Of a DNA stretch of 64,000 nucleotides, positions 15,715 through 61,723 are shown piece by piece. Source of the DNA: an uncultured Gammaproteobacteria bacterium (GTDB taxonomy: Bacteria; Patescibacteriota; Microgenomatia; UBA8517); contig CAYSEQ010000002.1 in assembly GCA_964430475.1 (NCBI GenBank), forward strand, positions 71,706 through 135,705. The letters are read 5' to 3'. Position 1 is the stretch's first letter. The number at the start of each line of letters is the position of its first letter. A model generated the notes under the pieces. It was not told the origin of the DNA, made no database searches, and saw nothing but the letters and a program-made list of their open reading frames with translations. A program made the position numbers and the translations under genes.

Positions 15715-15802
15715 GATTGCTTATTTAAGATATTTTTGTTGTAGTAAAAGTGTCAGTTGATCCTTTTATAAATTTTAAGTAGTGAGCTTATTTTTACTGC
15801 TT

Positions 15803-16798: not shown

Positions 16799-16872
16799 AT
16801 TTTACTCCTTTTTAGGCAGCTCATGTTAAAATTTAATAATCCTAAATGTAGGATACCTAGTTAAACTTTTTT

Positions 16873-19899: not shown

Positions 19900-19901
19900 A
19901 A

Positions 19902-20681: not shown

Positions 20682-20730
20682 TTTTAGGCTACATATAAAA
20701 ATTTTTTGGTAATTGAAACAAAGCCAGGTC

Positions 20731-22305: not shown

Positions 22306-22316
22306 AATAATCCTTG

Positions 22317-35511: not shown

Positions 35512-35567
35512 CTTTAATTTAGATAACATCGTATAAGCATATTCCCGAAGAGTTACACAAGTAGAAG

Positions 35568-36512: not shown

Positions 36513-36552
36513 AAGTTAGTCTTATTACTTTTTAAAGGAGAGTTTTATTAAA

Positions 36553-37320: not shown

Positions 37321-37351
37321 ATGAGATGATATTTTTAGAAAAGTAAAAAAA

Positions 37352-41388: not shown

Positions 41389-41397
41389 GGGGTTATT

Positions 41398-42309: not shown

Positions 42310-42322
42310 GTATAACCTTTTT

Positions 42323-43156
42323 ATGTTGGATGTTTCTGTCATCATAGTTAGTTTTAATACCAAGGAATTAACTATCAAGTCTGTTAGATCAGTTTTGGGT
42401 GAGGGTTCAGATCTTAGTAAAGAGATAATAGTAGTGGACAATGCTTCAGATGATGGTTCACTAGAGGCATTATCTAGGATGAAGGATGAATATAAAAAAT
42501 CAAAGATAGGGATTAAGATTATAAAAAATCGTAAGAATTTAGGTTTTGCGAAGGCCAATAATCAGGGAATAAAGGTCGCAAAAGGGGAATATATTTTTCT
42601 TTTGAATTCGGACGCTTTACTTAAGAAGGGTTCACTTAGTAAACTCGTCAGTTTTGCAAAAGAAAGACCAGATGCGGGTGCTGTGGGACCAAGGCTTTTG
42701 AATCCTGACGGAACAACCCAAGCTTCAGCCTTTCGTTTTCCAGGCATCTTTCGTGCTATAAGGCAATACTGGTTAGGGGAAAAGGGACTTTTGGATAAGT
42801 ATATTCCGGAGACTAAAAATCAAGAGGCTACCAAAGTTGAATCATTAGTAATGGCAGCATTTTTAATTACCCCAAAAGCGTTGAAGGAAGTCGGGTTATT
42901 GAACGAGAGATATTTTATGTATTTTGAGGATTTAGACTATTGCAAAAGAATTCGGAAAAAGGGATTGAGTGTTTATTATCTGCCTACGGCAGAAGTTATA
43001 CATTACCACGGTGCAAGTGGAAAGAGATTATCAAATCAAGATAATCAGTGGAGACGCCTTATTCCATCAAGTAAAATTTACCATGGTATGTTTAAACATT
43101 ATCTTATAAATTTCATTATATGGTCAGGACAGAAATGTCAAAGAGTTTTTCATTAA
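42323..43156 (+). CDS. GT2 glycosyltransferase (DxD type, paralog of 35568 and 41398)
   Basis: VSVIIVSFNTKE...IVVDNASDDGS...GFAKANNQG...LNSDALL...YFEDLDYCKR. ATG at 42323 is preferred over the ORF-track start 42278. Confidence 0.8.
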   Translation: MLDVSVIIVSFNTKELTIKSVRSVLGEGSDLSKEIIVVDNASDDGSLEALSRMKDEYKKSKIGIKIIKNRKNLGFAKANNQGIKVAKGEYIFLLNSDALLKKGSLSKLVSFAKERPDAGAVGPRLLNPDGTTQASAFRFPGIFRAIRQYWLGEKGLLDKYIPETKNQEATKVESLVMAAFLITPKALKEVGLLNERYFMYFEDLDYCKRIRKKGLSVYYLPTAEVIHYHGASGKRLSNQDNQWRRLIPSSKIYHGMFKHYLINFIIWSGQKCQRVFH

Positions 43157-44874
43157 TCTCAAAAGTTCCGCTTATTTTTTTGATTTTAATATTGGCATTT
43201 TTGCTAAGGTTCATAAAAATTGAATCTGTCCCTGTATCTCTTTTTTCCGATGAGTTAGATGTTGGGTACCATGCGTATTCTTTAATCAAAACAGGTAAAG
43301 ATTACATGGGTCATAAACTTCCCTTGTACTTCGAGTCCTATTCTGATTTTAGAACTCCATTTTTAATTTATTCTGCGGTTCCAAGCGTATTTTTGTTTGG
43401 TATTTCACCTTTAGGTGTACGCTTGCCTGCCATTTTATTTGGCACTTTTGGTGTTTTAGTATTTTATTTACTTGTCGCCGAAATTTTTAGAGGTGAAGAT
43501 AGGAGAAAAACCAACTTAATGGCATTAGTAGCCGCTTTTGTATTAGCGGTTAGTCCCTGGCACATCCAATATTCTAGGGCAGGATTTGAAGCTACGGCAT
43601 TGGTTTTTTTTCTTTTACTTGGATTATATTTTTTTTTCAAGGGTGTAGATGATGAAAGATATCTCTTACTCTCGGCTTTATCCTTTGGAATCACTGTTTG
43701 GATATATAGCACGGCAAAACTTTTTACACCGATTTTAACTATTTTCCTTTTTTGGATTTATAAAAGAAATATCCTTCAGGTTTCTAAAAAGACTTTAATC
43801 TATAGCTTTCTAATTCTTGGTCCTTTTTTTGTTCCAATGGTTTACTTAACTTTTAGGGGTGGGGGAAATCAAAGATTTAACTATATAAGCGTTTTCACCG
43901 ATCCAGCTATAGAGGGAGAGATGTCTTTTCAAAGGCTTATCGATGCCCAGTTTGAAGGACCTCAAAGAAATCTACTTCAAAAAATAACCTCAAGACTTAT
44001 ACACAATAAATATTCATATTGGATTTCTAAAATTGTTCAAAATTACTTTGAGACATTTTCAATGCAGTTTTTATTTATGAAAGGGGATTTAAATTTAAGA
44101 CATTCGCCTGAGGGGATTGGACAATTTTATAAGATAGAAGTGATACCGTTACTTCTTGGATCTGCCTTATTTTTTCTAAATTTTAGCGATAGAAAATTTA
44201 AAAAGCTCTTGGCCCTTTGGATTTTTGTAGGAGCTTTACCTTCCGCGATTACTCGTGATGGTGGTCATCATGCAACGAGGCTGATTTTAATTCTTCCGCC
44301 ATTAATCATTCTTATTTCTTATGGAATTGTACAAACTTCCTTTCTTTTTAAAAACTTGAAATTAAGGATTATTTTTTGGGGGACTTATTTTTCTATATTT
44401 AGTATTTTATTTTTTCTTTATCTTCACACATTGTTTGTTCATAATCCTTGGTACTCTGAACGCTATTGGCATGCAGGATACAAGGAAATGATTGAGTCAT
44501 TAAAGGTTTTGGAAGAGAGGTATCAAAAGATCATTATCACAAACGCCTTAGACCAGCCTTATATTTTCCTTGCAGCTTATTACCCTATTCCTCCTGAAAT
44601 TTGGCAAAGAGGTTTTGAGGAGGAATATGTAGAGGGTTTTGGGGAACTTAGGAGAATAGACAAATTTTATTTTGGTCAGGTGGGTGAAGAGGGCATAAGT
44701 GTACTGGCAAATTTTTTGGATGAGAAAACGCTGTATGTCGCAGCTGAAAGAGAGGTTGGTGCCAATTTGATATTGGAACCCCAAAAAACTCCTAAAGGTC
44801 TTAAACTTGTTAAGGCAATTTCTTATCCTTCGGGAGAGCCGGCATTTTATCTTTTTGAAAAGGAAAGATCATGA
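43135..44874 (+). CDS. ArnT/PMT_2-like GT-C glycosyltransferase (array copy 1)
   Basis: FSDELDVGYHAYSLIKTGKDYMGH...DFRTPFLIY and SPWHIQYSRAGFEAT. C-terminal domain ITNALDQPYIFLAAYYPIPPE...SYPSGEPAFYLFE. Confidence 0.65.
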   Translation: MSKSFSLISKVPLIFLILILAFLLRFIKIESVPVSLFSDELDVGYHAYSLIKTGKDYMGHKLPLYFESYSDFRTPFLIYSAVPSVFLFGISPLGVRLPAILFGTFGVLVFYLLVAEIFRGEDRRKTNLMALVAAFVLAVSPWHIQYSRAGFEATALVFFLLLGLYFFFKGVDDERYLLLSALSFGITVWIYSTAKLFTPILTIFLFWIYKRNILQVSKKTLIYSFLILGPFFVPMVYLTFRGGGNQRFNYISVFTDPAIEGEMSFQRLIDAQFEGPQRNLLQKITSRLIHNKYSYWISKIVQNYFETFSMQFLFMKGDLNLRHSPEGIGQFYKIEVIPLLLGSALFFLNFSDRKFKKLLALWIFVGALPSAITRDGGHHATRLILILPPLIILISYGIVQTSFLFKNLKLRIIFWGTYFSIFSILFFLYLHTLFVHNPWYSERYWHAGYKEMIESLKVLEERYQKIIITNALDQPYIFLAAYYPIPPEIWQRGFEEEYVEGFGELRRIDKFYFGQVGEEGISVLANFLDEKTLYVAAEREVGANLILEPQKTPKGLKLVKAISYPSGEPAFYLFEKERS

Positions 44875-46166
44875 GAAATCTTTTTGTTTTTCTTTTCGCT
44901 TTCACTTTTTTATTTAGAATTATACTTTCATTTTTTGTTTGGCATCCGGATGTTAGGAATAATATGGATTGGGGAAAACGTTTTTACGAATACGGAGCTT
45001 CAAAATTTTATAGCCCTGAATCAAATGTCTGGAGTTTTCTTTGGCCTAATCAGCCACCAGGTTCTATTTACCTTTTTGCTTTCATATACAAAATCTATGA
45101 ATTTTTATTTTCCATTTTTTGGTTTTTAAATATTAAAATTAGGCTTTTTCCTTCAATAATAATTTCACTTTTATTTCCTCCGGAAATTCTTTTAGTAAAC
45201 AGTCTCTATTCAGCTCTTATGCATTTCCCAGGGATTATCTCCGATTTGCTTTTGGCATTCCTTATATATAAATCTTTGTTGGCTTTGGATAAAAAGAATG
45301 TTGCAAAATTGGCGGCATTGATTTTTTTACTAAACCCTGTTGTTTGGTACAATTCTTCAGTGTGGGGACAGTATGATTCTTTTGTTTTTCTTCTTGCGTT
45401 ATCAGGTTTTTATTTTTTAATTAATAAAAAACCCGTTCTTGCAAGCATTTCGTATTCTTTGTCTTTATATACAAAAGCAACACCCTTAATATTTTTACCC
45501 GTCTTTTTAGTTTACTGGTTTAAGAGTAAGTTTAGTTTGAAGGATCGTTTTCTTTCATTAACATTACCAATTTTATTAATTGGTTTTTTAACATTACCTT
45601 TTTCGCGTGGTGAACCTTTTTCTTGGTTATTTAATTTATATAAAGACAAGATATTTATTGAGCAAAGACAGGTTGTTACATCAAATGCCTTCAATATTTG
45701 GGCGGGATTAACAGGAATCTATCAAGTTTCACATTATGATTTCTTAGGACCTTTTACTTATAAGACATGGGGATTGATATTCTATTCAATCTCTTATCTT
45801 TTCCCACTTATTTTAATTTTCAAAAAAAGGGATATAAAAAGTCTTGTTTGGACACTAGCAATGGTTTCCATTTCTTCATTCTCTTTACTTACTAATATGC
45901 ATGAAAGGTATCTTTTTCCGTTTTTTCCGCTTTTCACTATAGTCACTTTTATGGATAAAAGATTATTTGGGATTTATGTCTTAATTAGCATATTAAATTT
46001 TTTAAACCTTTATAATTTTTGGTGGTTTCCAGATATAGGTTTTCTTAAAAGTTTTTTGTCGTATAATGAAGGAATAAACGCTAGAATCCTTGGATATTTG
46101 GAATTTTTTATATTTGTATTACTTTATCGAATATTTCTTAAAAAGTTTCTAAAGTATATTTTATAA
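44871..46166 (+). CDS. PIG-V/DUF2029-like GT-C membrane glycosyltransferase candidate
   Basis: ATGA overlap with the upstream gene. FLWPNQPPGSIYLF and NSSVWGQYDSF are shared with 28073 and 46191. Confidence 0.45.
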   Translation: MRNLFVFLFAFTFLFRIILSFFVWHPDVRNNMDWGKRFYEYGASKFYSPESNVWSFLWPNQPPGSIYLFAFIYKIYEFLFSIFWFLNIKIRLFPSIIISLLFPPEILLVNSLYSALMHFPGIISDLLLAFLIYKSLLALDKKNVAKLAALIFLLNPVVWYNSSVWGQYDSFVFLLALSGFYFLINKKPVLASISYSLSLYTKATPLIFLPVFLVYWFKSKFSLKDRFLSLTLPILLIGFLTLPFSRGEPFSWLFNLYKDKIFIEQRQVVTSNAFNIWAGLTGIYQVSHYDFLGPFTYKTWGLIFYSISYLFPLILIFKKRDIKSLVWTLAMVSISSFSLLTNMHERYLFPFFPLFTIVTFMDKRLFGIYVLISILNFLNLYNFWWFPDIGFLKSFLSYNEGINARILGYLEFFIFVLLYRIFLKKFLKYIL

Positions 46167-46190
46167 GCAAGAAACCAAGCCGTGAATTTT

Positions 46191-47420
46191 ATGAGTAAAA
46201 AAGGGATATTTGTTTTAGCTATCTTTGTTTATTTTCTGATTTCCCCTTTAACCTATCATCCAGATATAAAAACAATCTTTTATCTTTCCCAATTTCTTTC
46301 CAAGGGAATTTTAAATATTTATTCTTATTTGGAAACGACTCCAAGTGTTGCACAACTGGGGCAATTCGTATATCCTCCGCTTGCTTATATTTTTTACGGT
46401 ATTTTATTTGTTCCAGTTAAATTTATTGCGGGAGAAGGTTTTTCTACCTGGCTGGCTATGGGGAATGATGAGATCAACCACGCGCATATTTTCCGATACC
46501 TTTTTTTGATGAAACTTCCGGGAATATTGTTTCTTTTACTTACAGGTTATCTTTTATCTAGTTTTATTAAGGATGAAAAACAAGGAAGACTTGCTTTAAT
46601 TTTATGGTTTTTTAACCCTGTAAGTCTTTATGTAGTGGGTTTAATGGGTCAAATTGACATCGTACCTACTTTCATAACATTTCTTTCCCTTTTTTATCTA
46701 AATAAAAATCCTTATTTTTCGGCTTTCTTTTTGGGTTTAGGGGCTAGCTTTAAAACATATCCTTTAATCCTTATTCCTTATACTTCACTTCTTGTGCGAA
46801 AGACTTGGAAACATAGATTGTTAATTAGTATTTGCGGTTTTTTAACATTTATTTTTCTTATATTTCCTTTTGTCAAAACCCCGGCATTTTATCATGCAAG
46901 CTTGGTTTCAGGACTAACTAAAAGAATTTTTGAGCTGAAAATGTCGGTCGGATTTGAGGAGTATATCTTGATTTTACCGACAATACTTTTTCTGCTTCTT
47001 ATTTTAAGTTCATCGAAAAAATTTGGAGAAACTAAGAAATCCTTTGTTTATTTTTTCGGTGTCACCTTTTACTTGTTTTCGGGTTTGCATTTTCATCCCC
47101 AGTGGGCAATGTGGAGTATTCCATTTTTGATTTTAAGTGTTTTGGATTTTGTTCTTAGAAAAGAGGGTGATATCGTGTTATCAACAATCCTTTTTTTCTT
47201 GGGGTGGATTGGTGTTTTAGTACTTTATGATGATAAATTTTTGACATGGGGAATTTTGTCTCCTTTAGATCCAGGGGTTCTTTTTTTGCCCACCTTAAGT
47301 AGCTTTCTTAAGCCGTTTGTTGAACCGAATTTACTAAAAAGTGTTTTTCATAGTCTTATTCTTACCTCAGGTTCTTGGGTTTTTTTAAGAAGTTTGATTA
47401 ATAATGCAAAGATTAAATAA
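46191..47420 (+). CDS. PIG-V/DUF2029-like GT-C membrane glycosyltransferase candidate
   Basis: FVYPPLAYIFYG and VVGLMGQIDIV. Polytopic. An alternative GTG start lies at 46182. Confidence 0.45.
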   Translation: MSKKGIFVLAIFVYFLISPLTYHPDIKTIFYLSQFLSKGILNIYSYLETTPSVAQLGQFVYPPLAYIFYGILFVPVKFIAGEGFSTWLAMGNDEINHAHIFRYLFLMKLPGILFLLLTGYLLSSFIKDEKQGRLALILWFFNPVSLYVVGLMGQIDIVPTFITFLSLFYLNKNPYFSAFFLGLGASFKTYPLILIPYTSLLVRKTWKHRLLISICGFLTFIFLIFPFVKTPAFYHASLVSGLTKRIFELKMSVGFEEYILILPTILFLLLILSSSKKFGETKKSFVYFFGVTFYLFSGLHFHPQWAMWSIPFLILSVLDFVLRKEGDIVLSTILFFLGWIGVLVLYDDKFLTWGILSPLDPGVLFLPTLSSFLKPFVEPNLLKSVFHSLILTSGSWVFLRSLINNAKIK

Positions 47421-47997
47421 TTTTTTTCTACTGACATTATTTATTACATTCGTGTTTTTGGGCATAAACTTATTTGTTAGTTTATTTATGGTTCAAAATA
47501 GACTTGGTTTTCAACATTCTGGAGAAAAATTTGTTGAAATAAAAGAACCACTTTCTTTCGCTTATAAACCAACCTACGATAATTTTAATATATTAATTTT
47601 TACTTTTAAAAATCCTGTTTCCGCAAATCAGGAAAATTTTAGTCTTAAGATTCTTTCCGAAGAGAAAGTCATTAGGGAGATAACTTTTAGCGGCTTTAAC
47701 TTAGGAGATACACAGGATTTAAAATTTCAATTTGATCCCATATTGGATTCAAAGGGAAAAGAATTTAAAATTGAAATATCTGCCCAAAATTACCGTAACC
47801 CAATATTTATTAATGTGGACGATAAAGGTATACCATCTTTTAAGGCGTACTATAGAACCACTAAAAAATTTTTTGTCTTAAGAAACATCCTAAGTTCTTG
47901 GGTTAATTTTGTAAAAAGTGATTTAGTATTTTTCTCCATATGGTTTTTAATTCTTATCCTTACATCCATACTTGGATCTAGATATGCTAAAAAATAG
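47404..47997 (+). CDS. hypothetical bitopic protein: N-terminal TM anchor, soluble domain of about 130 aa, C-terminal TM
   Basis: The hydrophobic N-terminus LLTLFITFVFLGINLFVSLFMV and the C-terminus VFFSIWFLILILTSILG flank a beta-rich-looking central domain. Overlaps both neighbours. Confidence 0.4.
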   Translation: MQRLNNFFLLTLFITFVFLGINLFVSLFMVQNRLGFQHSGEKFVEIKEPLSFAYKPTYDNFNILIFTFKNPVSANQENFSLKILSEEKVIREITFSGFNLGDTQDLKFQFDPILDSKGKEFKIEISAQNYRNPIFINVDDKGIPSFKAYYRTTKKFFVLRNILSSWVNFVKSDLVFFSIWFLILILTSILGSRYAKK

Positions 47998-49663
47998 GCT
48001 TTTAATTTTTGCTATTTTCTTTGTGGCATTTATCTTACGTGTTTGGGGTCTTAATAAAGTTCCACCAGAACTTTTTGGTGATGAGCTAGATGTAGGTTAT
48101 CATGCCTATTCTTTACTCAAGACTTTTCGTGATTATTATGGTCAGTTTTTGCCAACTTATATTCACTCCTTTTCCGAGTGGAGAGCTCCTCTTTTGATGT
48201 ATGTGACAGCTCCTTTTGTCGCTATTTTTGGACTAAACGAGTGGGGGGTAAGACTTCCGAGTGTGGTATTCGGCATTATTTCCATCTGGTTTTTTTATTT
48301 GATTGTTAAGAGGTTAAGAAAGCAAAATCGGATCTCTTTAGAGTTGGAAATTTTTGCAGGTTTATTTTTTGCAACTGTCCCTTGGCATATCCAGTACTCA
48401 AGATCGGCTTTTGAAGTCTCTCTTTTATTATTCTTAATTCTTTCCGCAACTTACTTCTTTTTAAAAAGTCTTGAGAAAGGTATATTTCTGATTATTTCCG
48501 CTTTCCTTTTCTCCCTAACTTTTTATACTTATAGTACCGCGAACCTTTTTATTCCACTTTATCTAATTCTTGTAGTCTTAGTTTTTAGGAGACAGGTTTT
48601 ATCTATTGATAAAAAGGTTTTAGTTTCTTCATTTTTAATATTTTTACTTTTATCTCTGCCTATGGCTTTCAATATCCTTTTTGGACACGCGGCGGATCGT
48701 TTTAAACAATTTAGTGTTTTTACCGATGAACAAGTTGAGAAAGAAATCATAAGAAAAAGACTTCTAGTAGATAGTCCTAGCGAAAGACTATTCCATAACA
48801 AATATACTTTTTGGTTTAAAGAAATAGTTGCAAATTATGCCTCTTCTTTTTCCCCACAATTTTTATTTATAACAGGCGATATAGTCTTTCGTCACTCCAT
48901 TCATACGGGTGAGCTTTTTTGGGTGATGCTTCCTCTTTTGATCATTGGGTTCTATCGAATTTTTAAGCTGAACAATAAATCTAGGTATTTTTGGATTGGT
49001 TGGTTATTTCTTGCTCCAATTCCTTCCTCTTTAACGAGAGATGGCGCTTTTCATGCCACTCGTCTTATCTTGATGCTTCCCCCTCTTATTTTTTTAGCGA
49101 GTTTAGGTATTGATGGTGTATTAAATTACAAACTACCGCGAATGTTAAAGAAAGCTACACTACTCTCTTTAGGTTTAGTGTTTGTTTTGCAATTTGGGTT
49201 TTATATTCATGAATATTGGATACATTATCCAAAAGAATCATGGCGTTGGTGGCAGGTAGGTTACAAAGAAGCTTTAGAGTTTATGAAAAATGAGGAAAAA
49301 AATTACGATATTTTAGCCTTTAACAATACTTATGAACCCTCCCTAATTAGATTTTTATTCTGGTGGAAATATCCACCTGAAAGATTTTTGAAAGAATTCA
49401 AGGAAGATAAGGAAAAAAAGGATATTCTTCCCGGTTTTAATGGCTTTTCTTTAGAAGACAAATATTTTTTTGGAAGTGCCAAAGATTCACCAGGAGGAGT
49501 TTCGAGTTTTGTAAAACCAAACATGCTTTATCTTGTTTCCCATCAGGATGAAGTTGGAGGTGATTGGGATTGGGAAGATAACCCACCTGAGGGTATAAAA
49601 GTTTTGAAAACAATAAGAAATCCATATGGAGAGCCTATCTTTTATGTTGTAACTGGAAATTGA
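47984..49663 (+). CDS. ArnT/PMT_2-like GT-C glycosyltransferase (array copy 2)
   Basis: FGDELDVGYHAYSLLKTFRDYYGQ...EWRAPLLMY and VPWHIQYSRSAFEVS. C-terminus NNTYEPSLIRFLFWWKYPPE...KTIRNPYGEPIFYVV. Confidence 0.65.
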   Translation: MLKNRLLIFAIFFVAFILRVWGLNKVPPELFGDELDVGYHAYSLLKTFRDYYGQFLPTYIHSFSEWRAPLLMYVTAPFVAIFGLNEWGVRLPSVVFGIISIWFFYLIVKRLRKQNRISLELEIFAGLFFATVPWHIQYSRSAFEVSLLLFLILSATYFFLKSLEKGIFLIISAFLFSLTFYTYSTANLFIPLYLILVVLVFRRQVLSIDKKVLVSSFLIFLLLSLPMAFNILFGHAADRFKQFSVFTDEQVEKEIIRKRLLVDSPSERLFHNKYTFWFKEIVANYASSFSPQFLFITGDIVFRHSIHTGELFWVMLPLLIIGFYRIFKLNNKSRYFWIGWLFLAPIPSSLTRDGAFHATRLILMLPPLIFLASLGIDGVLNYKLPRMLKKATLLSLGLVFVLQFGFYIHEYWIHYPKESWRWWQVGYKEALEFMKNEEKNYDILAFNNTYEPSLIRFLFWWKYPPERFLKEFKEDKEKKDILPGFNGFSLEDKYFFGSAKDSPGGVSSFVKPNMLYLVSHQDEVGGDWDWEDNPPEGIKVLKTIRNPYGEPIFYVVTGN

Positions 49664-51439: not shown

Positions 51440-51456
51440 TATTTTTTAAGTTTATA

Positions 51457-53055: not shown

Positions 53056-54749
53056 AAAATCTTAATGAACCAAAGTCTATTTCCCATCAAATATACTAAT
53101 TCTTCGTTGAGTAAAATTTCTTTTAAAAGAAGAAAATTTTTTGGTAAGTTTAAATGATTAAAGTTCTCTTTTGGACCTAGAAATTCTCCAGGAAAACCTA
53201 TAAAAACTGCATCTTTGGAGTTTTCAATTAGATCAGGCGAAATTGATGTAAATTCGAGGTTTTCTATTTTGAAACCTAGATCTGTTTTGTTTTTTGCGAA
53301 TAAGGTTTGTTGTTCTATTTTTGAAGGAACAATGTCAAGGTAGAATGCAGTAGATATGTGTGTTGGACCAAAACTATTAGTTATAAAGATTTTTTTGTAA
53401 TTTTCTTGATTTTCCTTAATCCAGTTTGAGATTTCTAAATAAGCGAGAGCATCAGATCTTTTGTAATCTTCTTGTTTTGTGAAAAAAAGGTTATAAAAGT
53501 TAAGAAGACTCATCGAGTAAAGGGGAATAATTAAAACGAGCGTAAAAAACTTTAAAGACCCCTTTTTTAACTTATTATAAATAAAGTTAAATCCCAGTAT
53601 TTCGATCGTTAATAAAATTGGTATAAAGAAGATGCCAGAAAAAACAAGATCTTTCTTCTCAAAAACTAGATATGGAAAAAGCGATGCAAGTATGAAACTT
53701 TTCGGAAAAACTAGTTTTCTTCTTGATTGTAATATTAGATAAATACCAAGAACTACTAATGGTATCTCAATAAAAGAAAGAAGGGGAAGTTTGGATTTTG
53801 GCAAGACACCACTTAATCTTAATTCATCGTAGGACTCTTCTGGAAAACTCAAATGTTCAAAATCCAACAAGCCTATAAGATGATTGTTAATCTTATTGAT
53901 AGCAAGTAAAGGTTTATTATAAATTGATTTTCGGACAACTAAAGGAAGGATAAATTTTTTGTTAGTTGACAGGTAGTCTATTTTTTGGCGCTCGTTTATT
54001 TCGTCGGAAAGAACCGAGGGTCTTAACTTTTCAATAAATGTATTTTGAATCAGAAGATTGTGAATATAGTTTTTGTTTGAGAGTATTGCTAGAAGGAAAA
54101 TTCCCAAACTAAAAATTGAGAGAAAGACTACAAATCTATTTTGTCTTTCTTGAAAAAGGATAAAGATTAGTAAGAAAATGGAAAAGATGAATCCACTCGG
54201 GCTAGTAAAGGCACAAGCTATTAAGGAAAGAAATAAAAATAGGGCACTTATCTTGTGATTCATTTTTTTGTTTAGGGTTATATTTAGAGCAAGAAAAGCA
54301 AACAATAAAGATAGTGTTTCGGGAATAAAGTTGAAAGAAACCTGTGAAAGCCAAAAAGAAGACGATATGATAACTGCGAGCACGATTAAAGAAATTCCAT
54401 TTAAATTTGCAACTTTGGCTAGTGTTTTAAATGCTAGAAAAGAAAGAAATATTAATAAAATTATGCTTGGCACTTTGTAAAGGTATAAAAGATGGTTAAA
54501 GTTTCTGGAAAAAAGATAAAGAAAATCTGTTGTGACAAAGAATAATTTTTGTTCACCCTCCAAGGTTGTTTGGTCTTCTTTTAAAAATACCTCCGCAGTT
54601 AAGGGTTTATTACCCGCAAAATAGTACATTTGTATTTCGTTAGTGTTTGGAACTAAAGGGTATAAAACGCTGAGTATTGCCTTTATTAAAATACCAACGA
54701 GGATTATTAGGTATCCTAGAAAGTGGAATGGAAAGGTTTTTCTTCGCAT
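53052..54749 (-). CDS. divergent GT-C-like polytopic membrane protein related to the array family (array copy 5, inverted)
   Basis: The DEA loop motif is absent, but the C-terminal domain ITNSFGPTHISTAFYLDIVPSKIE aligns with the family motif QPYIFFLFY.KYDP. Its stop overlaps the start of 51457..53055 (ATGA on the reverse strand). Confidence 0.45.
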   Translation of the reverse strand: MRRKTFPFHFLGYLIILVGILIKAILSVLYPLVPNTNEIQMYYFAGNKPLTAEVFLKEDQTTLEGEQKLFFVTTDFLYLFSRNFNHLLYLYKVPSIILLIFLSFLAFKTLAKVANLNGISLIVLAVIISSSFWLSQVSFNFIPETLSLLFAFLALNITLNKKMNHKISALFLFLSLIACAFTSPSGFIFSIFLLIFILFQERQNRFVVFLSIFSLGIFLLAILSNKNYIHNLLIQNTFIEKLRPSVLSDEINERQKIDYLSTNKKFILPLVVRKSIYNKPLLAINKINNHLIGLLDFEHLSFPEESYDELRLSGVLPKSKLPLLSFIEIPLVVLGIYLILQSRRKLVFPKSFILASLFPYLVFEKKDLVFSGIFFIPILLTIEILGFNFIYNKLKKGSLKFFTLVLIIPLYSMSLLNFYNLFFTKQEDYKRSDALAYLEISNWIKENQENYKKIFITNSFGPTHISTAFYLDIVPSKIEQQTLFAKNKTDLGFKIENLEFTSISPDLIENSKDAVFIGFPGEFLGPKENFNHLNLPKNFLLLKEILLNEELVYLMGNRLWFIKIL

Positions 54750-54847
54750 TTTTTATTATACAACCCCTCAAAGGGTATTTATTGATCTTCCCATTTTAAG
54801 GATTTATTTTTTCGACAATTAATTTGGATAAAAGTATAATTAAAGGT

Positions 54848-56551
54848 ATGGAGAAATTTTTTTTGGCTATAGTTTTAGTCATTGGTTTTCTTCTTCGAAT
54901 TTTGTTTTTAAATAGTTACCCTTCTGGATTTACCCCTGACGAAGCCTCTTTTGGATATGATGCTTATTCAATATTAAAAACAGGCAGGGATCAGTGGGGA
55001 CACACCTTTCCCTTAGTTTTGGAATCGTTTGGTGATTTTAAACCGCCTCTATATTCGTACCTAGCTATTCCCAGTGTCTTAATCTTTGGTTTGAATAAAT
55101 TTGCAGTGAGACTTCCTAATGCCTTATTGGGAAGTTTATCGATTTTTATTGTTTATTTATTAGTTAAAAATTTAAGAGAAAATCTTAAGTTAAAGATTGC
55201 CAACAAAAATCTAACTTATGAACTTCTAGCTTCTTTGCTTTTGGCAATATCACCTTGGCATGTGATGTTGAGTAGAGGTGCCTTCGAGGCAAATTTAACT
55301 ACCTTTTTTCTTCCTTTAGGAATACTTTTGTTTGTTAAAGGGCTAAAAAAGAAAAACCTTTTTTTATGGTCTGCGGTTGTTTTTGGTTTGAATTTGTTTA
55401 CCTATCACTCTGCTAAATTCGTGACTATTGGTGTCTTGTTTTTTTTAATATTTATTTATCGTAAAGAATTTTTAGGTTTAGGATTTAAAAGATTATTTAT
55501 TTTTTCTGTTTTATTTTTGGTATTTTTTTTACCATTTCTATACACCTTTTTTGTTGGTGCTACGGCAAGAATCTCAGATCTTACAATTACTAAGGGAGCT
55601 TTGGAATCCGCATCTCAGGAAAGATTTATAGGTGAGTATGAGGGACTCCCAGGCTTTATTTCGCGTTTATTACACAATAAATTTCAGGTTTTCTTAAGGC
55701 GTTTCGTTTCAAATTACTTTCAATATTTCTCTCCACAGTTTCTATTTACAAACGGGCCTGCTGAATCTACTTATGGAATGCTTCGCGAGCGAGGGGTTCT
55801 TTATTGGTTCGAACTTCCTTTTTTGGTTGGATTTTTTATGTTTTTATTCACGAAAAGTTTAAAAGATATTAAACATTTATTGCCAATTATTTTTTGGTTA
55901 GCGATTGCGCCCATTCCCGCCAGCTTAGCGGCGGGCCCGGGTTATGCTGCGAATCGGGCGGAGGTTTCGTTACCAGCATATCAAATAATTTTTTCTTTTG
56001 GGGCTTTTGAGATATTTTATAGACTTAAGTCTTTACTAAAATCATATATTTTTAGATACATTAGGATTTTTTACATTCTTTTCTCTCTAATAATCTTCTT
56101 GGCATTTTTGGAGGATTATTTTATCCAATCTCCTTACAAAATTTCTAAAGCCATGCTTTATGGGAGTTACGAGGCAGCGTTGTGGCTTAAGGAGAATACC
56201 ACTGATAACCAGATTATTCTAGTGAGTAAAAGTTTATCTGAACCCCACATATTTATAGCATTTGCGAGTAATTTAGACCCTAGGATATATCAGGAAGAAG
56301 CAAAGACATGGAATTACAAGGAGAAAGGACTGATATGGGTTGACCAACTTCCCGCATACAGACTTGGGAATTATTTGTTTAAAAATATTGATTATGAAGT
56401 AGATTTTAAACAAAATGCGCTTCTTGTGGGTAAGCCTGAGGAGTTTCCGAAGAGTGCTAAAAGGCTTGCGACACTTTACTATCCAAGTGGTGAGGAAGCA
56501 ATTTTAATTGTTGAAGGAACTTGGGAATCTTATGCTCAAAAGCTTAACTAA
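54848..56551 (+). CDS. ArnT/PMT_2-like GT-C glycosyltransferase (array copy 6)
   Basis: TPDEASFGYDAYSILKTGRDQWGH...DFKPPLYSY and SPWHVMLSRGAFEAN. C-terminus SKSLSEPHIFIAFASNLDPR...TLYYPSGEEAILIVE. ATG at 54848; the ORF track begins at TTG 54824. Confidence 0.65.
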   Translation: MEKFFLAIVLVIGFLLRILFLNSYPSGFTPDEASFGYDAYSILKTGRDQWGHTFPLVLESFGDFKPPLYSYLAIPSVLIFGLNKFAVRLPNALLGSLSIFIVYLLVKNLRENLKLKIANKNLTYELLASLLLAISPWHVMLSRGAFEANLTTFFLPLGILLFVKGLKKKNLFLWSAVVFGLNLFTYHSAKFVTIGVLFFLIFIYRKEFLGLGFKRLFIFSVLFLVFFLPFLYTFFVGATARISDLTITKGALESASQERFIGEYEGLPGFISRLLHNKFQVFLRRFVSNYFQYFSPQFLFTNGPAESTYGMLRERGVLYWFELPFLVGFFMFLFTKSLKDIKHLLPIIFWLAIAPIPASLAAGPGYAANRAEVSLPAYQIIFSFGAFEIFYRLKSLLKSYIFRYIRIFYILFSLIIFLAFLEDYFIQSPYKISKAMLYGSYEAALWLKENTTDNQIILVSKSLSEPHIFIAFASNLDPRIYQEEAKTWNYKEKGLIWVDQLPAYRLGNYLFKNIDYEVDFKQNALLVGKPEEFPKSAKRLATLYYPSGEEAILIVEGTWESYAQKLN

Positions 56552-58280
56552 TATTTCCTTTTCTTTCTACTTAATTTTTTTCGGCACAATTTTTGCCCTT
56601 TTTTTACGCGTCATTGATATTGATAAAGTGCCTTCTTCTTTAAATTGGGATGAAATATCTCATGGATATAACGCTTACTCAATTCTTAAAACAGGCAAGG
56701 ACGAATGGGGTAAATCCTTTCCTGTCATTTTCAGGGCGTATGGTGATTATAAATTGCCGGTTTATATTTATATTACAACCGTCTCAGTATTTTTCTTTGG
56801 GTTAACACCCCTTGCAGTTCGTCTGCCATCAGTTCTTGCAGGTGTCGGTGTCTGTCTTTTTACTTATTTTTTAGTTAAAGAGCTTTTTAAAAATTCAAGG
56901 TTTAAAAAGTGGAAATTAGAATATCTTTCTTTCTTACTGGTTATTTTCGAACCCTGGACATTATTTATTTCTAGAGCTTCCTTTGAAGCCAATATCGGAC
57001 TTTTTTTATTTCTCGGAGGATTCTTGTTTTTTATAAAGAGCCTTAAGAATAGAAAGTTCTTGTTATTGTCTTCTTGTTTTTTTGGATTGAGTGTATGGGC
57101 GTACAATTCCTATAGGGTTTTTACTCCTATATTTCTTTCGCTATTAATACTTTTATTTAAAAAAAAGCTTTCTTTTTCATACTCCAAAGACAAAAAATAT
57201 ATTTTAATTTCAGTATTACTCATTTTATTTTTCTTTATTCCAATGTTTTGGCAACTTTTACACCCAGTTGGCCAGGCTCGGTTTGGGAAGGTTTCGATAA
57301 TTGACGAAGGTGCTATCGCCAAGATCATCGAAGAAAGACAAAGGTCAAATCTAAATGTTTTTGTTGAGCGTATTCTTTACAACCGACCAGTGTATTTTAT
57401 AAAGCGGTTTATTGCGAACTGGTTTTCGCATTTTACACCAAGGTTCTTATTTTTTTTGGGCGGCAATAACCATCAATTTAGTGTCCCTTCGCATGGTATT
57501 TTGTATTTGATAGATATGCCATTTTTTTTGGTGGGTCTTGCTTTACTTTTTTACAATGCGCTTAAGAAAGAGAAAACATTTATACTTATATTGCTCTGGT
57601 TATTGCTTGGACCTATCGCTTCAAGTCTTACTCGCGAGGCACCTCATGTTTTAAGAAGTGTTACGATGTTGCCAATACCGATGATTATTACTTCTTTGGG
57701 TCTAAGCGCCTTAGGTAATTTTGTCAAAAAATTTCTTCCTTATAAAATGTTCTTGATTTTTTGGATGTTGGTATTTTTTGTCTTTAGTGAGAGGTTTTTA
57801 ACAAAATATTTTACAGAGTACAAAGTATCTTATTCATGGGCTTGGCAGTATGGTTACAAAGAGGTGGTTGAATATGTAAGATCGCGTTATGATTTTTATG
57901 ACAAGATTATAGTAACCAAAAAATATGGAGAACCTCACGAATTCTTCCTTTTCTATTGGCCTTGGGATCCTAAAAATTATTTAGCTGATCCAAATCTAAT
58001 TCGCTTTTATCAATCAGGGTGGTATTGGGTGGATAGCTTTGACAAGTTTTATTTTGTTAATAATTGGGAGATTTCTGAAAAAAGCGGTGAAAATATACCC
58101 CGGTCTATTAAAAGTGAAGATGCTTTTAAACTTGAAAGTGGTAAAAAAGTAGAGTGTCAATTTGGAAGCACAAAATGTCTTTTAATAACAAGCCCTGGAA
58201 ATGTTCCAGGAAATTGGAGAAAATTGAAAACGATAAATTTTTTGGATGGAAGTCCTGCATTCGAGATATACGAAAATTAG
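56532..58280 (+). CDS. ArnT/PMT_2-like GT-C glycosyltransferase (array copy 7)
   Basis: NWDEISHGYNAYSILKTGKDEWGK...DYKLPVYIY and EPWTLFISRASFEAN. C-terminus TKKYGEPHEFFLFYWPWDPK...KTINFLDGSPAFEIYE. Confidence 0.65.
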   Translation: MLKSLTNISFSFYLIFFGTIFALFLRVIDIDKVPSSLNWDEISHGYNAYSILKTGKDEWGKSFPVIFRAYGDYKLPVYIYITTVSVFFFGLTPLAVRLPSVLAGVGVCLFTYFLVKELFKNSRFKKWKLEYLSFLLVIFEPWTLFISRASFEANIGLFLFLGGFLFFIKSLKNRKFLLLSSCFFGLSVWAYNSYRVFTPIFLSLLILLFKKKLSFSYSKDKKYILISVLLILFFFIPMFWQLLHPVGQARFGKVSIIDEGAIAKIIEERQRSNLNVFVERILYNRPVYFIKRFIANWFSHFTPRFLFFLGGNNHQFSVPSHGILYLIDMPFFLVGLALLFYNALKKEKTFILILLWLLLGPIASSLTREAPHVLRSVTMLPIPMIITSLGLSALGNFVKKFLPYKMFLIFWMLVFFVFSERFLTKYFTEYKVSYSWAWQYGYKEVVEYVRSRYDFYDKIIVTKKYGEPHEFFLFYWPWDPKNYLADPNLIRFYQSGWYWVDSFDKFYFVNNWEISEKSGENIPRSIKSEDAFKLESGKKVECQFGSTKCLLITSPGNVPGNWRKLKTINFLDGSPAFEIYEN

Positions 58281-58309
58281 TTAAAATTTTATATTATCCT
58301 TAATCAAGA

Positions 58310-60043
58310 ATGAAGACATTTGAGAAGTATTTTATTTTCTCTATTATTTTTTTATCCTCTATCCTAAGATTATGGAGATTGGGAGAAATTCCTCCTCACC
58401 TTACCCCTGATGAAGCGGCATTGGGTTACAATGCTTACTCAATTCTAAGAACAGGAAAAGATGAATACGGTCAGTTTTTCCCAATTGTCTTTAAATCGTT
58501 TGGAGATTATAAACCTGGCCTTTATATTTATTTAACGCTTCCATTTATTGCTTTCTTTGGTCTTAATGAGTTTGCGGTCCGTCTTCCCTCTGCCATTGCC
58601 GGTATATTCGCAGTATATTTGGTTTACCTAATAACCCTTAACGCATGGTGGTTTAAAAACGCAAAAGATATAATAAATGAAAACGAATTTCGTAGTAAAA
58701 GGTTTTTGGGTTTTTTTGCAAGTTTTCTTTTGGCGGTCTCTCCTTGGCACATTCATTTTTCCAGAGGTGCGTGGGAAGCTAATGTCTCACTTACCCTTAC
58801 ACTTGCAGGAATCTATTTTTTCTTAAAAGCCCTTGAAAATTCCAAAATGTTTTTTCCTTCTTTAATATTTTTTTCTTTAACACTTCTTACCTATCAAGGG
58901 GCAAAACTATCCACATTAATAGTGATCGTAATTTTATTTATCGTTTTTGCGAGAAATTTTTGGAAAAATTGTAAAGATAAGGTTTTGCCATTAACTTTAA
59001 GTGTGGTTGTAGCATCCATAATAGCTTTGCCAATCGTCTTTAGTGTAGCTAAGGGAGAGGCTGGTAGACTAAAAATTTTTAGTATATTTTCGTATCCAAG
59101 AAAGGAAGAAGAGATATCGGAACTTCTTTTACAGGCAAACGAAACCCCAGGGAGTTTAACTTATTATCTTTTCCATTCAGAAACATTGAATTATGCCAGG
59201 ATGATTATCGGACGGTGGTTTAATCATTTTAGTGGCCGGTTTTTGTTTTTTGAGGGAGATTACCAAAATCCTAGGCATTCGGCACCAAATCATGGGATGC
59301 TTCTTTTGGCGGATTTGATATTGATTCCATTTGGTTTGTTGGCTCTAATTAAGTCCAGATCAAAATTTTCTAGCTTTTCGTTGCTTTGGCTTGTATTGTC
59401 TTGTCTGCCCTCTTCCTTAACTCGAGATCAAGTAAATGCAGTAAGAGCGCTGAATATGGTGGTTCCACTAATTTTTGTCTCAGCATCAGGGATTAATTAC
59501 TTACTGCAAATAGAGTTGCTAGAGAAATCCTACCTTAAAAAAAAGTTACCCGGTTTTCGGCTTAGACTTACCCCATTATTTCTATTCGGTATTTTATTTC
59601 TGAGTTTAATTTATTATTTAGATTCCTACTTTGTTCATTTAACAAAGCATAATTCCAAATATTGGGAGTATGGATATAAACAGATTGTTGAAGCAGTTTC
59701 TCCGATCCAAAAAAATTATAAGGAGATTAAGGTTCAGCAATCTTTTTCCCAACCCTATATCTATTTTCTTTTCTATCAAAAGTATGACCCCTTAAAATAT
59801 CAAAGTCAGGCAAAATTGGTGGAAAGTGAATACAAGGGTGATGTGGGTTATGTAGAAAGACTTGATAACATTTGTTTTTGTGCCATAGATTGGCCTCGTG
59901 ATAAAAAAGAGCATGGCACCTTAGTTATTGCTGATAGCATTAGGATTCCGGATAGTGAACTTGTAAGTGATTCTCTAAGTTTATCTAAAGAAATAAAGTA
60001 TTTAGATGGCTCTGTTGCTTTTAGAATTGTTGAGGTGAAATGA
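58310..60043 (+). CDS. ArnT/PMT_2-like GT-C glycosyltransferase (array copy 8)
   Basis: TPDEAALGYNAYSILRTGKDEYGQ...DYKPGLYIY and SPWHIHFSRGAWEAN. C-terminus QQSFSQPYIYFLFYQKYDPL...KEIKYLDGSVAFRIVE. Confidence 0.7.
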   Translation: MKTFEKYFIFSIIFLSSILRLWRLGEIPPHLTPDEAALGYNAYSILRTGKDEYGQFFPIVFKSFGDYKPGLYIYLTLPFIAFFGLNEFAVRLPSAIAGIFAVYLVYLITLNAWWFKNAKDIINENEFRSKRFLGFFASFLLAVSPWHIHFSRGAWEANVSLTLTLAGIYFFLKALENSKMFFPSLIFFSLTLLTYQGAKLSTLIVIVILFIVFARNFWKNCKDKVLPLTLSVVVASIIALPIVFSVAKGEAGRLKIFSIFSYPRKEEEISELLLQANETPGSLTYYLFHSETLNYARMIIGRWFNHFSGRFLFFEGDYQNPRHSAPNHGMLLLADLILIPFGLLALIKSRSKFSSFSLLWLVLSCLPSSLTRDQVNAVRALNMVVPLIFVSASGINYLLQIELLEKSYLKKKLPGFRLRLTPLFLFGILFLSLIYYLDSYFVHLTKHNSKYWEYGYKQIVEAVSPIQKNYKEIKVQQSFSQPYIYFLFYQKYDPLKYQSQAKLVESEYKGDVGYVERLDNICFCAIDWPRDKKEHGTLVIADSIRIPDSELVSDSLSLSKEIKYLDGSVAFRIVEVK

Positions 60044-60052
60044 TTCTTTTTT

Positions 60053-61723
60053 ATGTCAAAGACTAAAATAACTTTAATATTCATTTTATTACTGGCTTTT
60101 TTACTTCGGTTTTACCGATTGGGGACTTATCCAGCTCTTAATGCTGATGAGGCTGCGATAGGATATAATGCTTACTCTCTTATTCAAACCGGCCGAGACG
60201 AGCATGGAAACCCTTGGCCTCTCCATTTCCAATCTTTTAACGACTATAAACCCGGTTTTTACTTTTATTTAGTTTTACCTTTTATAGCGGCATTTGGACT
60301 TAACGCTTGGAGTGTTAGGATTCCTAACGCTTTTTTAGGTGTTGCCACCGTCTATTTTGTCTATTTGGTAACAGCCAAACTCTACGAGATGAGCTTTGAG
60401 AAAGAAAAGAAGTTGAGAAAACTGATTGATTATCCGGCCATATTTGCAAGTTTTCTTTTGGCGGTCTCTCCCTGGCATATTCATTTTTCAAGAGGTGCAT
60501 GGGAGGTAAACACCTCTAGTTTTTTGATGGTTTTGGGTTTATGGTTTTTTATTAAAGCTTTGAAAGGCAAAAGAACCTTTCTAATTTTAAGTTCTTTAGC
60601 TTTTGTTTTGAGTCTTTATACTTATCATGCAACAAGGGTTGTGGTTCCCTTGTTGATTTTGGGGCTTATTGTTATTTATAAAGAAAACCTTAAGAGAAAT
60701 CTTAAAAATTATTTGCTTGCCTTTTTTGTTGGATTGTTACTCCTTTTACCGCTAATAAAAGACTTCGCTAAGGGTGAGGCTTTTTCGAGAGCAGCAGGTG
60801 TCGGTCTTTTTGCAGACCCCGGACCACTTGCGAGAATCAACGAGCAAAGAGGAGAGCATGGAGATTTCACCGGGAAAGTTGCAAAACTTTTTCACAATAA
60901 ACCGGTGAACTATGGATTGGCTTTCTTAAATAACTACTTTAAACATTTTGACGGAAATTTTCTTTTTATCTCAGGTGATTCAATTCAAAGAAACAAGGTA
61001 CCTGAGACAGGACAAATGTATTTTTTTGATTTTATCTGGATATCTTTAGGAATGATTTTCCTATTTAAAAATTTTAAAGAGAAAGAATCCAAGTTAATAC
61101 TTTTGTGGTTATTAGTTTCTCCTGTGGCATCTTCCTTAACATTTCAATCGCCAAATGCGCTCCGATCCGAAAACATGGTCATCCCTCTTGTAGTGATTGG
61201 CGCATTAGGTTTATTCAGGGCTATCATGTGGGGCAAAAGAATCATTGTTTACAGGCATCTACTCACTAGCTACTATCTACTAATTTTTAGTTTGATAACC
61301 TGGCAGTTTGTTAGATACCAACATATGTATTGGTTGCATATGGCAAAAGAATACCCTTTTTCCTCGCAGTATGGTGTCAAGGAGTTAGTTGACTTCGTAA
61401 GAACTGAAGGAGAGAATTTCAAAAAGATTGTCGTTACAGATAGATATGACCAGCCCTACATTTTATTCTTGTTTTATTTAAATTATCCTCCTGAAAAGTT
61501 TCAAAAAGAACATGTATTAACCTCACGAGATAAATTTGGTTTTTCAACAGTTAGGGATTTTGATAAATATGAGTTTAAGAGTATAAGTTGGGATACTGAT
61601 CGGGTAAAATACCCTGGCGCTTTAATTGTAGGCACAAGTCAGGAGATTCCTAAAGAGGCAAATATTGTCAAAAAAATTTACGGACAAAATGCTTATGAAT
61701 ATTTTGTTGTTGTTGCAAACTAA
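60053..61723 (+). CDS. ArnT/PMT_2-like GT-C glycosyltransferase (array copy 9)
   Basis: NADEAAIGYNAYSLIQTGRDEHGN...DYKPGFYFY and SPWHIHFSRGAWEVN. C-terminus TDRYDQPYILFLFYLNYPPE. Confidence 0.7.
   Translation: MSKTKITLIFILLLAFLLRFYRLGTYPALNADEAAIGYNAYSLIQTGRDEHGNPWPLHFQSFNDYKPGFYFYLVLPFIAAFGLNAWSVRIPNAFLGVATVYFVYLVTAKLYEMSFEKEKKLRKLIDYPAIFASFLLAVSPWHIHFSRGAWEVNTSSFLMVLGLWFFIKALKGKRTFLILSSLAFVLSLYTYHATRVVVPLLILGLIVIYKENLKRNLKNYLLAFFVGLLLLLPLIKDFAKGEAFSRAAGVGLFADPGPLARINEQRGEHGDFTGKVAKLFHNKPVNYGLAFLNNYFKHFDGNFLFISGDSIQRNKVPETGQMYFFDFIWISLGMIFLFKNFKEKESKLILLWLLVSPVASSLTFQSPNALRSENMVIPLVVIGALGLFRAIMWGKRIIVYRHLLTSYYLLIFSLITWQFVRYQHMYWLHMAKEYPFSSQYGVKELVDFVRTEGENFKKIVVTDRYDQPYILFLFYLNYPPEKFQKEHVLTSRDKFGFSTVRDFDKYEFKSISWDTDRVKYPGALIVGTSQEIPKEANIVKKIYGQNAYEYFVVVAN

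Follow-up and report, generated by a model that had tools for sequence, protein, structure and literature searches.

A conserved array of probable GT-C membrane glycosyltransferases with a private C-terminal domain in Microgenomates

Why would a bacterium of the Microgenomates type keep eight versions of one large membrane protein so close together, and what would each of them do? The question is raised by a 64,000-nucleotide (nt) stretch of contig CAYSEQ010000002.1 (GenBank assembly GCA_964430475.1, positions 71,706 to 135,705 of the forward strand), which is the window analysed here and to which all coordinates refer. The window has a GC content of ~34% and carries almost all of its genes on the plus strand, and from ~9.5 kb to its end it is occupied by a single very large glycan-biosynthesis locus. 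Within this locus, at 43120-61723, there are eight full-length paralogs of 532-591 amino acids (aa), all polytopic, which we call family A (A1 to A4 and A6 to A9, in gene order). They are most likely membrane glycosyltransferases of the GT-C fold, class A (ArnT/PMT_2-like), which form a Microgenomates-specific subfamily and share a C-terminal domain of their own.

An all-against-all BLASTP comparison of the open reading frames (ORFs) of the window gave pairwise identities of 24-38% over essentially the whole length of the eight proteins (E 1e-27 to 1e-113), which is a similarity far above chance. A preliminary description had reported a family of proteins of ~530-590 aa, and this holds in both size and full-length identity. 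The same description counted nine consecutive genes; the array is in fact interrupted by three genes (44871-46166, 46182-47420 and 47404-47997), three array genes lie on the minus strand and the full members number eight. The motifs quoted for the family are positionally homologous: DE..GY.AYS.LKTGKDE.G..FP, DYKP.LY, SPWHI.FSRGA.EAN, QP(Y/H)IFFLFY..YDP and LDG.PAF.IVE occupy the same columns of the MAFFT alignment in all eight members, which have 31 invariant positions and 8-10 hydrophobic segments per protein. A8 (58310-60043, plus strand, 577 aa), for which a database search returned >3,400 homologs, served as the modelled representative. Its key positions are D34/E35, K68 and S151/R152/E156. 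All of these are invariant in 8/8 paralogs except position 68, which is Lys or Arg in 8/8, and D34/E35 are also invariant across 55 aligned homologs, the exception being the derived gene A5x (53052-54749, minus strand), in which NE replaces DE.

The enzyme class follows from profile and structure comparisons taken together. At the Pfam gathering thresholds (26.1 bits for PMT_2, PF13231; 22.7 bits for PMT, PF02366), one of these two models was matched by five of the eight members over residues ~10-250, namely PMT_2 by A1 (40.8 bits), A2 (50.8 bits), A4 (43.1 bits) and A6, and PMT by A8 (27.2 bits). A7 and A9 remained below both thresholds, A3 had no Pfam match, and NCBIfam provided for the family only a sub-threshold match to TIGR03663 (Agl23). 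When the family profile was searched against the PDB sequences, ArnT of Cupriavidus metallidurans (5EZM) was the only meaningful match (E 0.003); the single sequence of E. coli ArnT aligned with the family profile by hhalign over 37 columns with a probability of 1.8%, too little to be informative. In the alignment of the profile with 5EZM, the Lys of DYKP (K68) falls on the Lys of the ArnT EKPP motif (K85) and the Glu of SRGAWEAN (E156) falls on ArnT D158. K85 of ArnT contacts the lipid phosphate, D158 contacts the sugar/acceptor, and D55/E56 have been equated with Pmt1 D77/E78, the DE motif of the first outer loop (PMC7801869). The DE pair of family A corresponds to ArnT D55/E56. An AlphaFold2 model of A8 built on the 55-sequence alignment (pLDDT 91.4, pTM 0.92) had ArnT as its best Foldseek match in the PDB (E 3e-8, TM-scores 0.51/0.54, probability 1.0), followed by STT3A/B and AglB, ALG12/ALG9, Pmt4, DPY19 and AftD, all with probability 1.0. 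The ArnT alignment, the cited roles of the residues and the match of the A8 model thus identify the quoted motifs as the canonical catalytic and donor-binding motifs of GT-C class A, and the ArnT/PMT_2 likeness proposed earlier is confirmed by Pfam, by the profile match to 5EZM and by structure.

The C-terminal domain, described previously as novel and ~170 aa long, turned out to be shorter. In the A8 model the last transmembrane (TM) helix (420-443) is followed by a compact alpha/beta domain of ~135 aa (444-577; DNA block 59621-60040), and across the family the soluble part extends ~135-150 aa past the last TM helix. Modelled alone, the domain reached a pLDDT of 86. It has no match in Pfam or NCBIfam, the profile search of PDB sequences gave nothing meaningful and Foldseek against the PDB returned noise, chiefly antibody Fabs, all with E > 0.2; none of the four approaches revealed a common known domain. 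In an exhaustive search of 1.84 billion cluster representatives, 2,885 proteins matched the domain profile at E <= 1e-3, of which 1,433 reached E <= 1e-10, and among the 150 matches listed the domain is always C-terminal in proteins of ~510-630 aa or in fragments thereof. Standalone C-terminal-domain proteins were considered and rejected, since the short matches start within the last TM helix and look like truncated gene calls. The tails of the other GT-C families of the locus (14056/16873/18424/20713, 23014, 32686 and 30938) were not detectably the same domain by hhalign or hmmsearch. The domain is real, family-specific and without a close solved relative. The architecture itself is not novel, because a membrane GT-C module followed by an outward-facing soluble C-terminal domain is the standard layout of ArnT and the oligosaccharyltransferases (OSTs). 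The loop preceding the last TM helix contains 3-6 Lys/Arg in every paralog, which according to the positive-inside rule, and in keeping with homology, would place the C-terminal domain outside the cell, as in ArnT.

Which parts of these proteins differ from copy to copy was apparent when pairwise identity was compared by region among the eight paralogs and within the A8 ortholog group. The first outer loop gave 0.46 among paralogs and 0.82 among A8 orthologs, and motif 2 gave 0.49 and 0.78, respectively. For the large outer loop 248-334 the corresponding values were 0.24 and 0.68, and for the C-terminal domain 0.24 and 0.63. The catalytic loops are thus conserved in both comparisons, whereas in the outer loop 248-334 and in the C-terminal domain the A8 orthologs alone show conservation. 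This pattern would be expected if the latter two regions carried paralog-specific acceptor or linkage functions, and it is suggestive of such a role.

The array occurs well beyond this genome and is typical of Microgenomates. A scan with the C-terminal motif, in which one genome per species was used, found 249 relatives, and the best 80 of them are all of the Microgenomates type (Woese-, Blackburn-, Davies-, Ames- and Gottesmanbacteria together with TPA records that evidently bear the name Gammaproteobacteria in error). Relatives of A8 come under the names Candidatus Woesebacteria or Patescibacteria, and public annotation calls them "glycosyltransferase family 39 protein", "ArnT family glycosyltransferase" or "Ara4N transferase-like". 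At least three two-domain family genes were present in 43 of the 46 loci of at least 20 kb (mode 5, maximum 6). Arrays of 3-6 copies in conserved gene order are thus the rule, which makes the array a hallmark of the lineage. In Woesebacteria RIFCSPHIGHO2_01_FULL_39_32 the array is syntenic with the one described here, with one-to-one orthologs of A1, A6, A7, A8 and A9 at 51-64% identity and with the same FAD oxidoreductase and GT2 genes coming after the array. The recurring order, which holds for several candidate phyla and was found also in Blackburnbacteria and Amesbacteria, is A1, a GT87-like gene, a variable block, A6, A7, A8, A9, the FAD oxidoreductase (in some cases) and the GT2. The variable middle block, which consists here of the genes at 47972, 49664, 51457 and 53052, differs between genomes. 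Clear orthologs of A6 were found in 48 related loci and those of A7 in 55.

One-to-one orthologs in other Woesebacteria, in Blackburnbacteria and in Amesbacteria are 40-64% identical and occur in the same order, while the paralogs are 24-38% identical. Since the orthologs are more similar than the paralogs, the duplications are older than the divergence of the lineages and each copy has been maintained, in agreement with the earlier proposal of old duplications with retained motifs. Synonymous sites are saturated at these levels of paralog and ortholog protein identity, and DNA similarity between the copies is limited to short motif tracts.

One such tract, of 62 nt and spanning motif 2 (FASFLLAVSPWHIHFSRGAWE), is 94% identical between the adjacent A8 (58715-58776) and A9 (60443-60504) genes and is sharply bounded; the two proteins are otherwise 37% identical. 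Within the tract 16 of the 22 third codon positions match, as against 45% elsewhere. The orthologous A8/A9 pair of a related locus (L001) likewise has an identical core in common, a different one of 26 nt. The tract looks like the result of short-tract gene conversion between neighbours. As for the names of the source organisms, many TPA_asm records of metagenome-assembled genomes titled 'uncultured Gammaproteobacteria bacterium' hold Microgenomates-type arrays with 50-75% protein identity to the window (L003, L007, L009, L010 and others), and these titles look like taxonomic mislabels.

The genes upstream of the array indicate where the substrates of family A could come from. A GT2-GtrA fusion protein encoded at 9508-10656 (plus strand; Pfam Glycos_transf_2 and GtrA_DPMS_TM) is a candidate polyprenyl-phosphate-sugar synthase, the best NCBIfam matches of which (PgfS, AglJ and PpgS) were each below cut-off. 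The small GT2 proteins encoded at 13361, 19902 and 22314 had their best NCBIfam matches among undecaprenyl-phosphate 4-amino-4-deoxy-4-formamido-L-arabinose (Ara4FN) transferase (ArnC), PgfS, PpgS and dolichyl-phosphate hexose transferases. The first of them (13361-14074, plus strand; ArnC/DPM1-like), with Ara4FN transferase as its best match (E 4.5e-24, below cut-off), lies directly upstream of and overlaps the PMT_2 GT-C gene 14056-15714. At 13361/14056, 19902/20713 and 22314/23014 a GT2 gene is followed by a GT-C gene, with ends that overlap or nearly abut, and these three pairs (13361-24723) look like ready-made donor-plus-transferase modules. A Wzx/MOP-type flippase is encoded at 29438-30931 (plus strand; Pfam Polysacc_synt_3, E 1.6e-50; NCBIfam MOP flippase, E 1e-40), and cytoplasmic GT2 and GT4 enzymes together with a methyltransferase are encoded at 34612-43156. 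The locus also codes for an 810-aa YfhO protein, three PTPS_related/YfhO-like proteins and four other PMT_2-like proteins, so that the GT-C-type genes number ~20 in ~54 kb (9500-64000) and fall into at least four families (PMT_2-like, PTPS_related/YfhO, GT87-like and family A). Nearly all GT-C proteins of the locus end in a soluble tail of 120-170 aa, and from family to family these tails are unrelated in sequence.

On this basis we think it fairly probable that the family A proteins are polyprenyl-phosphate-sugar-dependent GT-C transferases, each of which adds a specific sugar to a surface glycan. Three-component extracytoplasmic glycosylation relies on a polyprenyl-phosphate-sugar synthase, a flippase and a GT-C transferase (PMC11127046). 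Since the locus holds this list of parts, polyprenyl-phosphate-monosaccharide donors on the outer face are proposed. The cytoplasmic ArnC/DPM1-like GT2 proteins would load a monosaccharide onto polyprenyl phosphate, flipping would move the lipid-linked sugar across the membrane, and a GT-C paralog would transfer the sugar on the outer face by means of D34/E35, K68 (the Lys/Arg holding the lipid phosphate) and E156 of motif 2. The paralogs would jointly elaborate a cell-surface glycan in a stepwise manner. As the paralogs are old and each has been kept as a one-to-one ortholog, they most likely differ from one another in acceptor or linkage specificity. The likeliest determinants of acceptor specificity would be the C-terminal domain and the outer loop 248-334. 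The C-terminal soluble domains of Emb and AftD bind the acceptor glycan, and the analogy with these and other GT-C enzymes, together with the conservation contrast described above, is suggestive of acceptor recognition by the C-terminal domain of family A as well.

Several points weigh against this proposal. The donor, the acceptor and the order of action are inferred, and the conservation contrast rests on a single ortholog group, that of A8. DSSP assignment of the model gives ~12 TM helices, a number that would be at odds with an N-in/C-out arrangement if it did not include a short or kinked helix counted on its own. Furthermore, the window contains no initiating phosphoglycosyltransferase, no ligase and no obvious acceptor gene.

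A different use of the same machinery would be protein O-glycosylation. In this explanation, which we hold to be possible though rather doubtful, the paralogs would be PMT/Pgf-like O-glycosyltransferases acting on proteins that are secreted or exposed at the surface (S-layer proteins, pilins and the like), with the C-terminal domain binding the protein acceptor, and they would either recognize different proteins or add successive sugars to protein-linked glycans. It agrees with the above-threshold PMT (PF02366) match of A8, with the occurrence of Pmt4 and Pmt1/2 among the significant Foldseek matches and with the resemblance of the locus GT2 proteins to PgfS and AglJ. In addition, the 810-aa YfhO protein is weakly similar to PgfM2 of the streptococcal Pgf protein-glycosylation system, and Wzx matches an 'O-glycosylation flippase' model (E 9e-30). 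However, neither a MIR nor a PMT_4TMC domain was detected in any member (Pfam, E <= 0.01), the best match by both structure and sequence is ArnT and not PMT, the window is devoid of candidate acceptor protein genes, and 8-10 distinct conserved paralogs suit the stepwise building of a glycan better than the targeting of proteins. The closeness to ArnT could in turn mean that the proteins are true ArnT-type lipid modifiers, which would attach a sugar to the head group of a glycolipid or lipid-anchored polymer and so tune surface charge or resistance. The closest solved structure, the conserved equivalents of K85 and D158, the ArnC-like GT2 genes in the locus and the public annotation of relatives as 'ArnT family glycosyltransferase' are all compatible with that, but homologs of ArnA, ArnB and ArnD were not found in the window, no ArnT-specific NCBIfam model was matched, and a single lipid target would leave 8-10 conserved paralogs unexplained. 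Patescibacteria are, to our knowledge, not known to make lipid A, which counts against this explanation too, and we judge it distinctly unlikely.

The Foldseek matches that come next after ArnT over the full length (STT3A, AglB and STT3B) draw attention to the C-terminal domain as a possible miniature of the OST type, in which WxYGYK, located directly behind the last TM helix, would be a degenerate WWDYG and glycans would be transferred en bloc from polyprenyl diphosphate to proteins or polymers. W452, Y454, G455 and K457 hardly vary among orthologs, G455 does not vary at all among the paralogs, and these residues sit where OSTs carry WWDYG. Against this stand the lack of a Pfam STT3 match, the lack of any OST in the profile search of PDB sequences, the non-conservation of the acidic residue of WWDYG among the paralogs and the alignment of the lipid-phosphate Lys with ArnT, which uses a monophosphate donor; we regard the idea as very improbable. 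Finally, the copies might have no separate functions, being either duplicated DNA that is redundant or in decay, or an artefact of assembly. The loss of catalytic-loop features in A5x and the variable middle of the array would fit such a view. Synteny and orthology have already largely refuted it, since every copy is an intact ORF and the catalytic residues are invariant, orthologs of the individual copies stand in the same order in dozens of independent assemblies and DNA similarity between copies does not go beyond the short motif tracts; we give it hardly any credence.

The preferred reading, that of sugar-specific transferases building a surface glycan, can be carried further. The genes would then represent an undescribed Microgenomates-wide GT-C lineage in which the core A6-A7-A8-A9 and the accessory copies assemble a glycan outside the cytoplasm in production-line fashion, as the bacterial equivalent of the ALG pathway in the lumen of the endoplasmic reticulum. 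The C-terminal domain with WxYGYK would be a reduced OST-type module for acceptor binding, and the surface glycan would be a major and costly product, probably tied to attachment to a host cell. In this full form the proposal is speculative and, in our opinion, unlikely.

Two divergent relatives had been suggested as further members, and in each case one of the two modules was found. Profiles of both modules were searched against all ORFs of the window. A0 (30938-32704, plus strand, 588 aa) is a distant relative with a homologous membrane module (E 2e-40) that keeps DE and PW..R..E.N, but the shared C-terminal domain was undetected in its tail (no hmmsearch match; hhalign E 0.3). A5x (565 aa; C-terminal domain ~53115-53489), a derived member, has the C-terminal domain (E 1.7e-14; hhalign probability 96.7), but its N-terminal part did not match the membrane-module profile of the family, and the alignments show that, besides having NE for DE, it lacks the Lys loop of DYKP and the Ser-Arg of motif 2. 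A0 and A5x thus appear to mirror each other, one having the membrane module only and the other the C-terminal domain only. A search of 5.8 billion proteins found only 2 homologs of A5x. In three related loci (L009, L045 and L057) the minus strand carries an A5x-type gene next to one of the A4 type; some A5x orthologs retain DE, and the Lys loop is missing from all. A5x is probably catalytically altered or inactive, and may be a pseudo-enzyme or a partner subunit.

The array begins with A1 (43120-44874, plus strand, 584 aa), which consists of the GT-C membrane module and the C-terminal domain (44425-44871); both module profiles match it, its BLASTP E-values to the paralogs range from 1e-34 to 1e-113, and its ortholog in L001 is 51% identical. 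The start reported here is 43120; the start given before, 43135, is the second ATG. The three interrupting genes are all on the plus strand and are not members of the family. The first (44871-46166) codes for a GT87-like polytopic membrane protein (Pfam GT87, 27.4 bits) that is a paralog of the 28073-29428 product (BLASTP E 5e-33) and has no match to the family profiles; a GT87-like gene follows the A1-type gene in many related loci. The second (46182-47420) codes for a protein with ~8 TM helices according to hydropathy and the third (47404-47997) for a protein of 197 aa with TM helices at each end, and neither had a match in Pfam or NCBIfam. They are followed by A2 (47972-49663, plus strand, 563 aa; C-terminal domain 49208-49660).

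Three family A-type genes (49664-51439, 51457-53055 and 53052-54749) form an inverted block on the minus strand. A3 (49664-51439, 591 aa; C-terminal domain block 49667-50176) diverges most among the full members, matches both module profiles (E 1e-105 for the N-terminal and 8e-39 for the C-terminal one) and has few orthologs in related loci. It alone has a Pro-rich extension of ~40 aa past the shared C-terminal domain (49664-49790, minus strand): …YPFSKAPPIPQELPPMLKYMVEKETKYPDGIIPEDYPSLW. A2 and A3 are convergent, and their stop codons abut at 49663/49664 with zero spacer. The other two genes of the block are A4 (51457-53055, 532 aa; C-terminal domain 51460-51876) and A5x. The conserved core on the plus strand starts with A6 (54824-56551, 575 aa; C-terminal domain 56111-56548) and continues with A7 (56508-58280, 590 aa), the C-terminal domain of which (57801-58277) has an insertion of ~25 aa, with A8 and with A9 (60053-61723, 556 aa; C-terminal domain 61322-61720), whose ortholog in L001 is 64% identical. 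Just 74 nt separate the divergent A5x and A6 (54749-54824), and the region's best promoter-like match, TCGACA-17-TATAAT (54812-54840), lies in this spacer. As the match overlaps the TTG at which A6 is annotated to start, A6 may in fact begin with the ATG at 54848. In the promoter and terminator scans the matches were not above the shuffled expectation, and we therefore claim no operon boundaries.

Downstream of A9, the plus strand carries an FAD oxidoreductase gene (61740-63032; Pfam Amino_oxidase; NCBIfam PRK07233, E 1e-114), the product of which is amine-oxidase/phytoene-desaturase-like, and directly after it a GT2 gene (63029-63934). Orthologs of both with 65% identity are found at the same position in L001, and a GT2 gene comes after the array in most related loci. 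The two genes may be linked to the array in function, as a step that modifies a sugar or a lipid. A DHH/DHHA1 gene (NrnA-like oligoribonuclease/pAp phosphatase) is located in the middle of the locus at 15782-16798 on the plus strand.

The enzyme class, the motifs and the general architecture of these proteins are already known, and public databases annotate the proteins in generic terms. New to the literature searched are the subfamily, its private C-terminal domain and the tandem array conserved across Microgenomates: no paper describing any of them was found, and a search on GT-C expansions in the candidate phyla radiation/Patescibacteria returned nothing relevant. The finding adds to the established picture of such enzymes without contradicting it. 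Complete Woesebacteria chromosomes in our genome set measure 0.82-0.92 Mb, and ~20 GT-C genes in one locus of such a tiny genome represent a large, conserved investment in outer-face glycosylation despite a minimal metabolism, which points to an elaborate surface glycan or glycoprotein coat. With its fixed catalytic loops and its divergent outer loop and C-terminal domain, the subfamily is also a natural experiment on how GT-C enzymes gain acceptor specificity.

Among known systems, ArnT (GT83; 5EZM/5F15, Cupriavidus metallidurans) is the nearest. It shares with family A the GT-C class A fold, being both the best structural match and the only significant sequence match in the PDB, and it also shares the DE pair in the first outer loop, the phosphate-contacting Lys (K85, equivalent to K68) and the acidic residue before TM4 (D158, equivalent to E156). 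In both, a membrane module is followed by an outward-facing soluble C-terminal domain (PMC7801869). The differences are considerable, however. Identity to ArnT is just 12-14%, ArnT is encoded by one gene as compared with eight to ten tandem paralogs here, the organism presumably has no lipid A, and family A does not have the ArnT-type C-terminal periplasmic domain. Of the Ara4N pathway, the genes arnA, arnB, arnD and arnE/F were not found among the 48 ORFs of the window that were scanned; the only arn-type genes there are the ArnC-like GT2 genes. The PMT family (GT39, Pfam PMT_2) resembles family A in the Pfam coverage of residues ~10-250, in the DE motif (Pmt1 D77/E78) and in the family 39 annotations of relatives. 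In contrast to it, family A has no MIR and no PMT_4TMC domain, 3/8 members are below the Pfam thresholds, and most Pmt1/2/4 entries match in structure over ~290 columns only. The combination of Pfam STT3 with WWDYG in the C-terminal domain, by which STT3, AglB and PglB are recognized, was not found in family A.

In gene content the locus resembles the three-component systems (GtrA/GtrB/Gtr-GT-C; CsbB/GtcA/YfhO; Citrobacter GT136, PMC11127046), in that a GT2 synthase, GtrA-like/Wzx flippases and GT-C proteins are encoded in one locus and overlapping GT2-then-GT-C pairs are present here too. Those systems usually have one GT-C protein per donor, whereas here ~20 GT-C-like genes share four candidate synthases and the family A genes have no individual GT2 partner. 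Several paralogous GT-C enzymes working with lipid-phosphate donors are known from the ALG3/9/12/6/8/10 set of the endoplasmic reticulum lumen and from the mycobacterial Emb/Aft/Mpt enzymes, which add one sugar each in a fixed order. Unlike in those lines, the family A genes are in tandem, the C-terminal domain is a small alpha/beta domain and not of the carbohydrate-binding-module fold, and we only infer that the enzymes act sequentially. Even so, ALG12, ALG9 and AftD are structural matches of family A, and the stepwise glycan building proposed here is comparable to the assembly of mycobacterial arabinogalactan and lipoarabinomannan and to modification of the Gtr/YfhO type.

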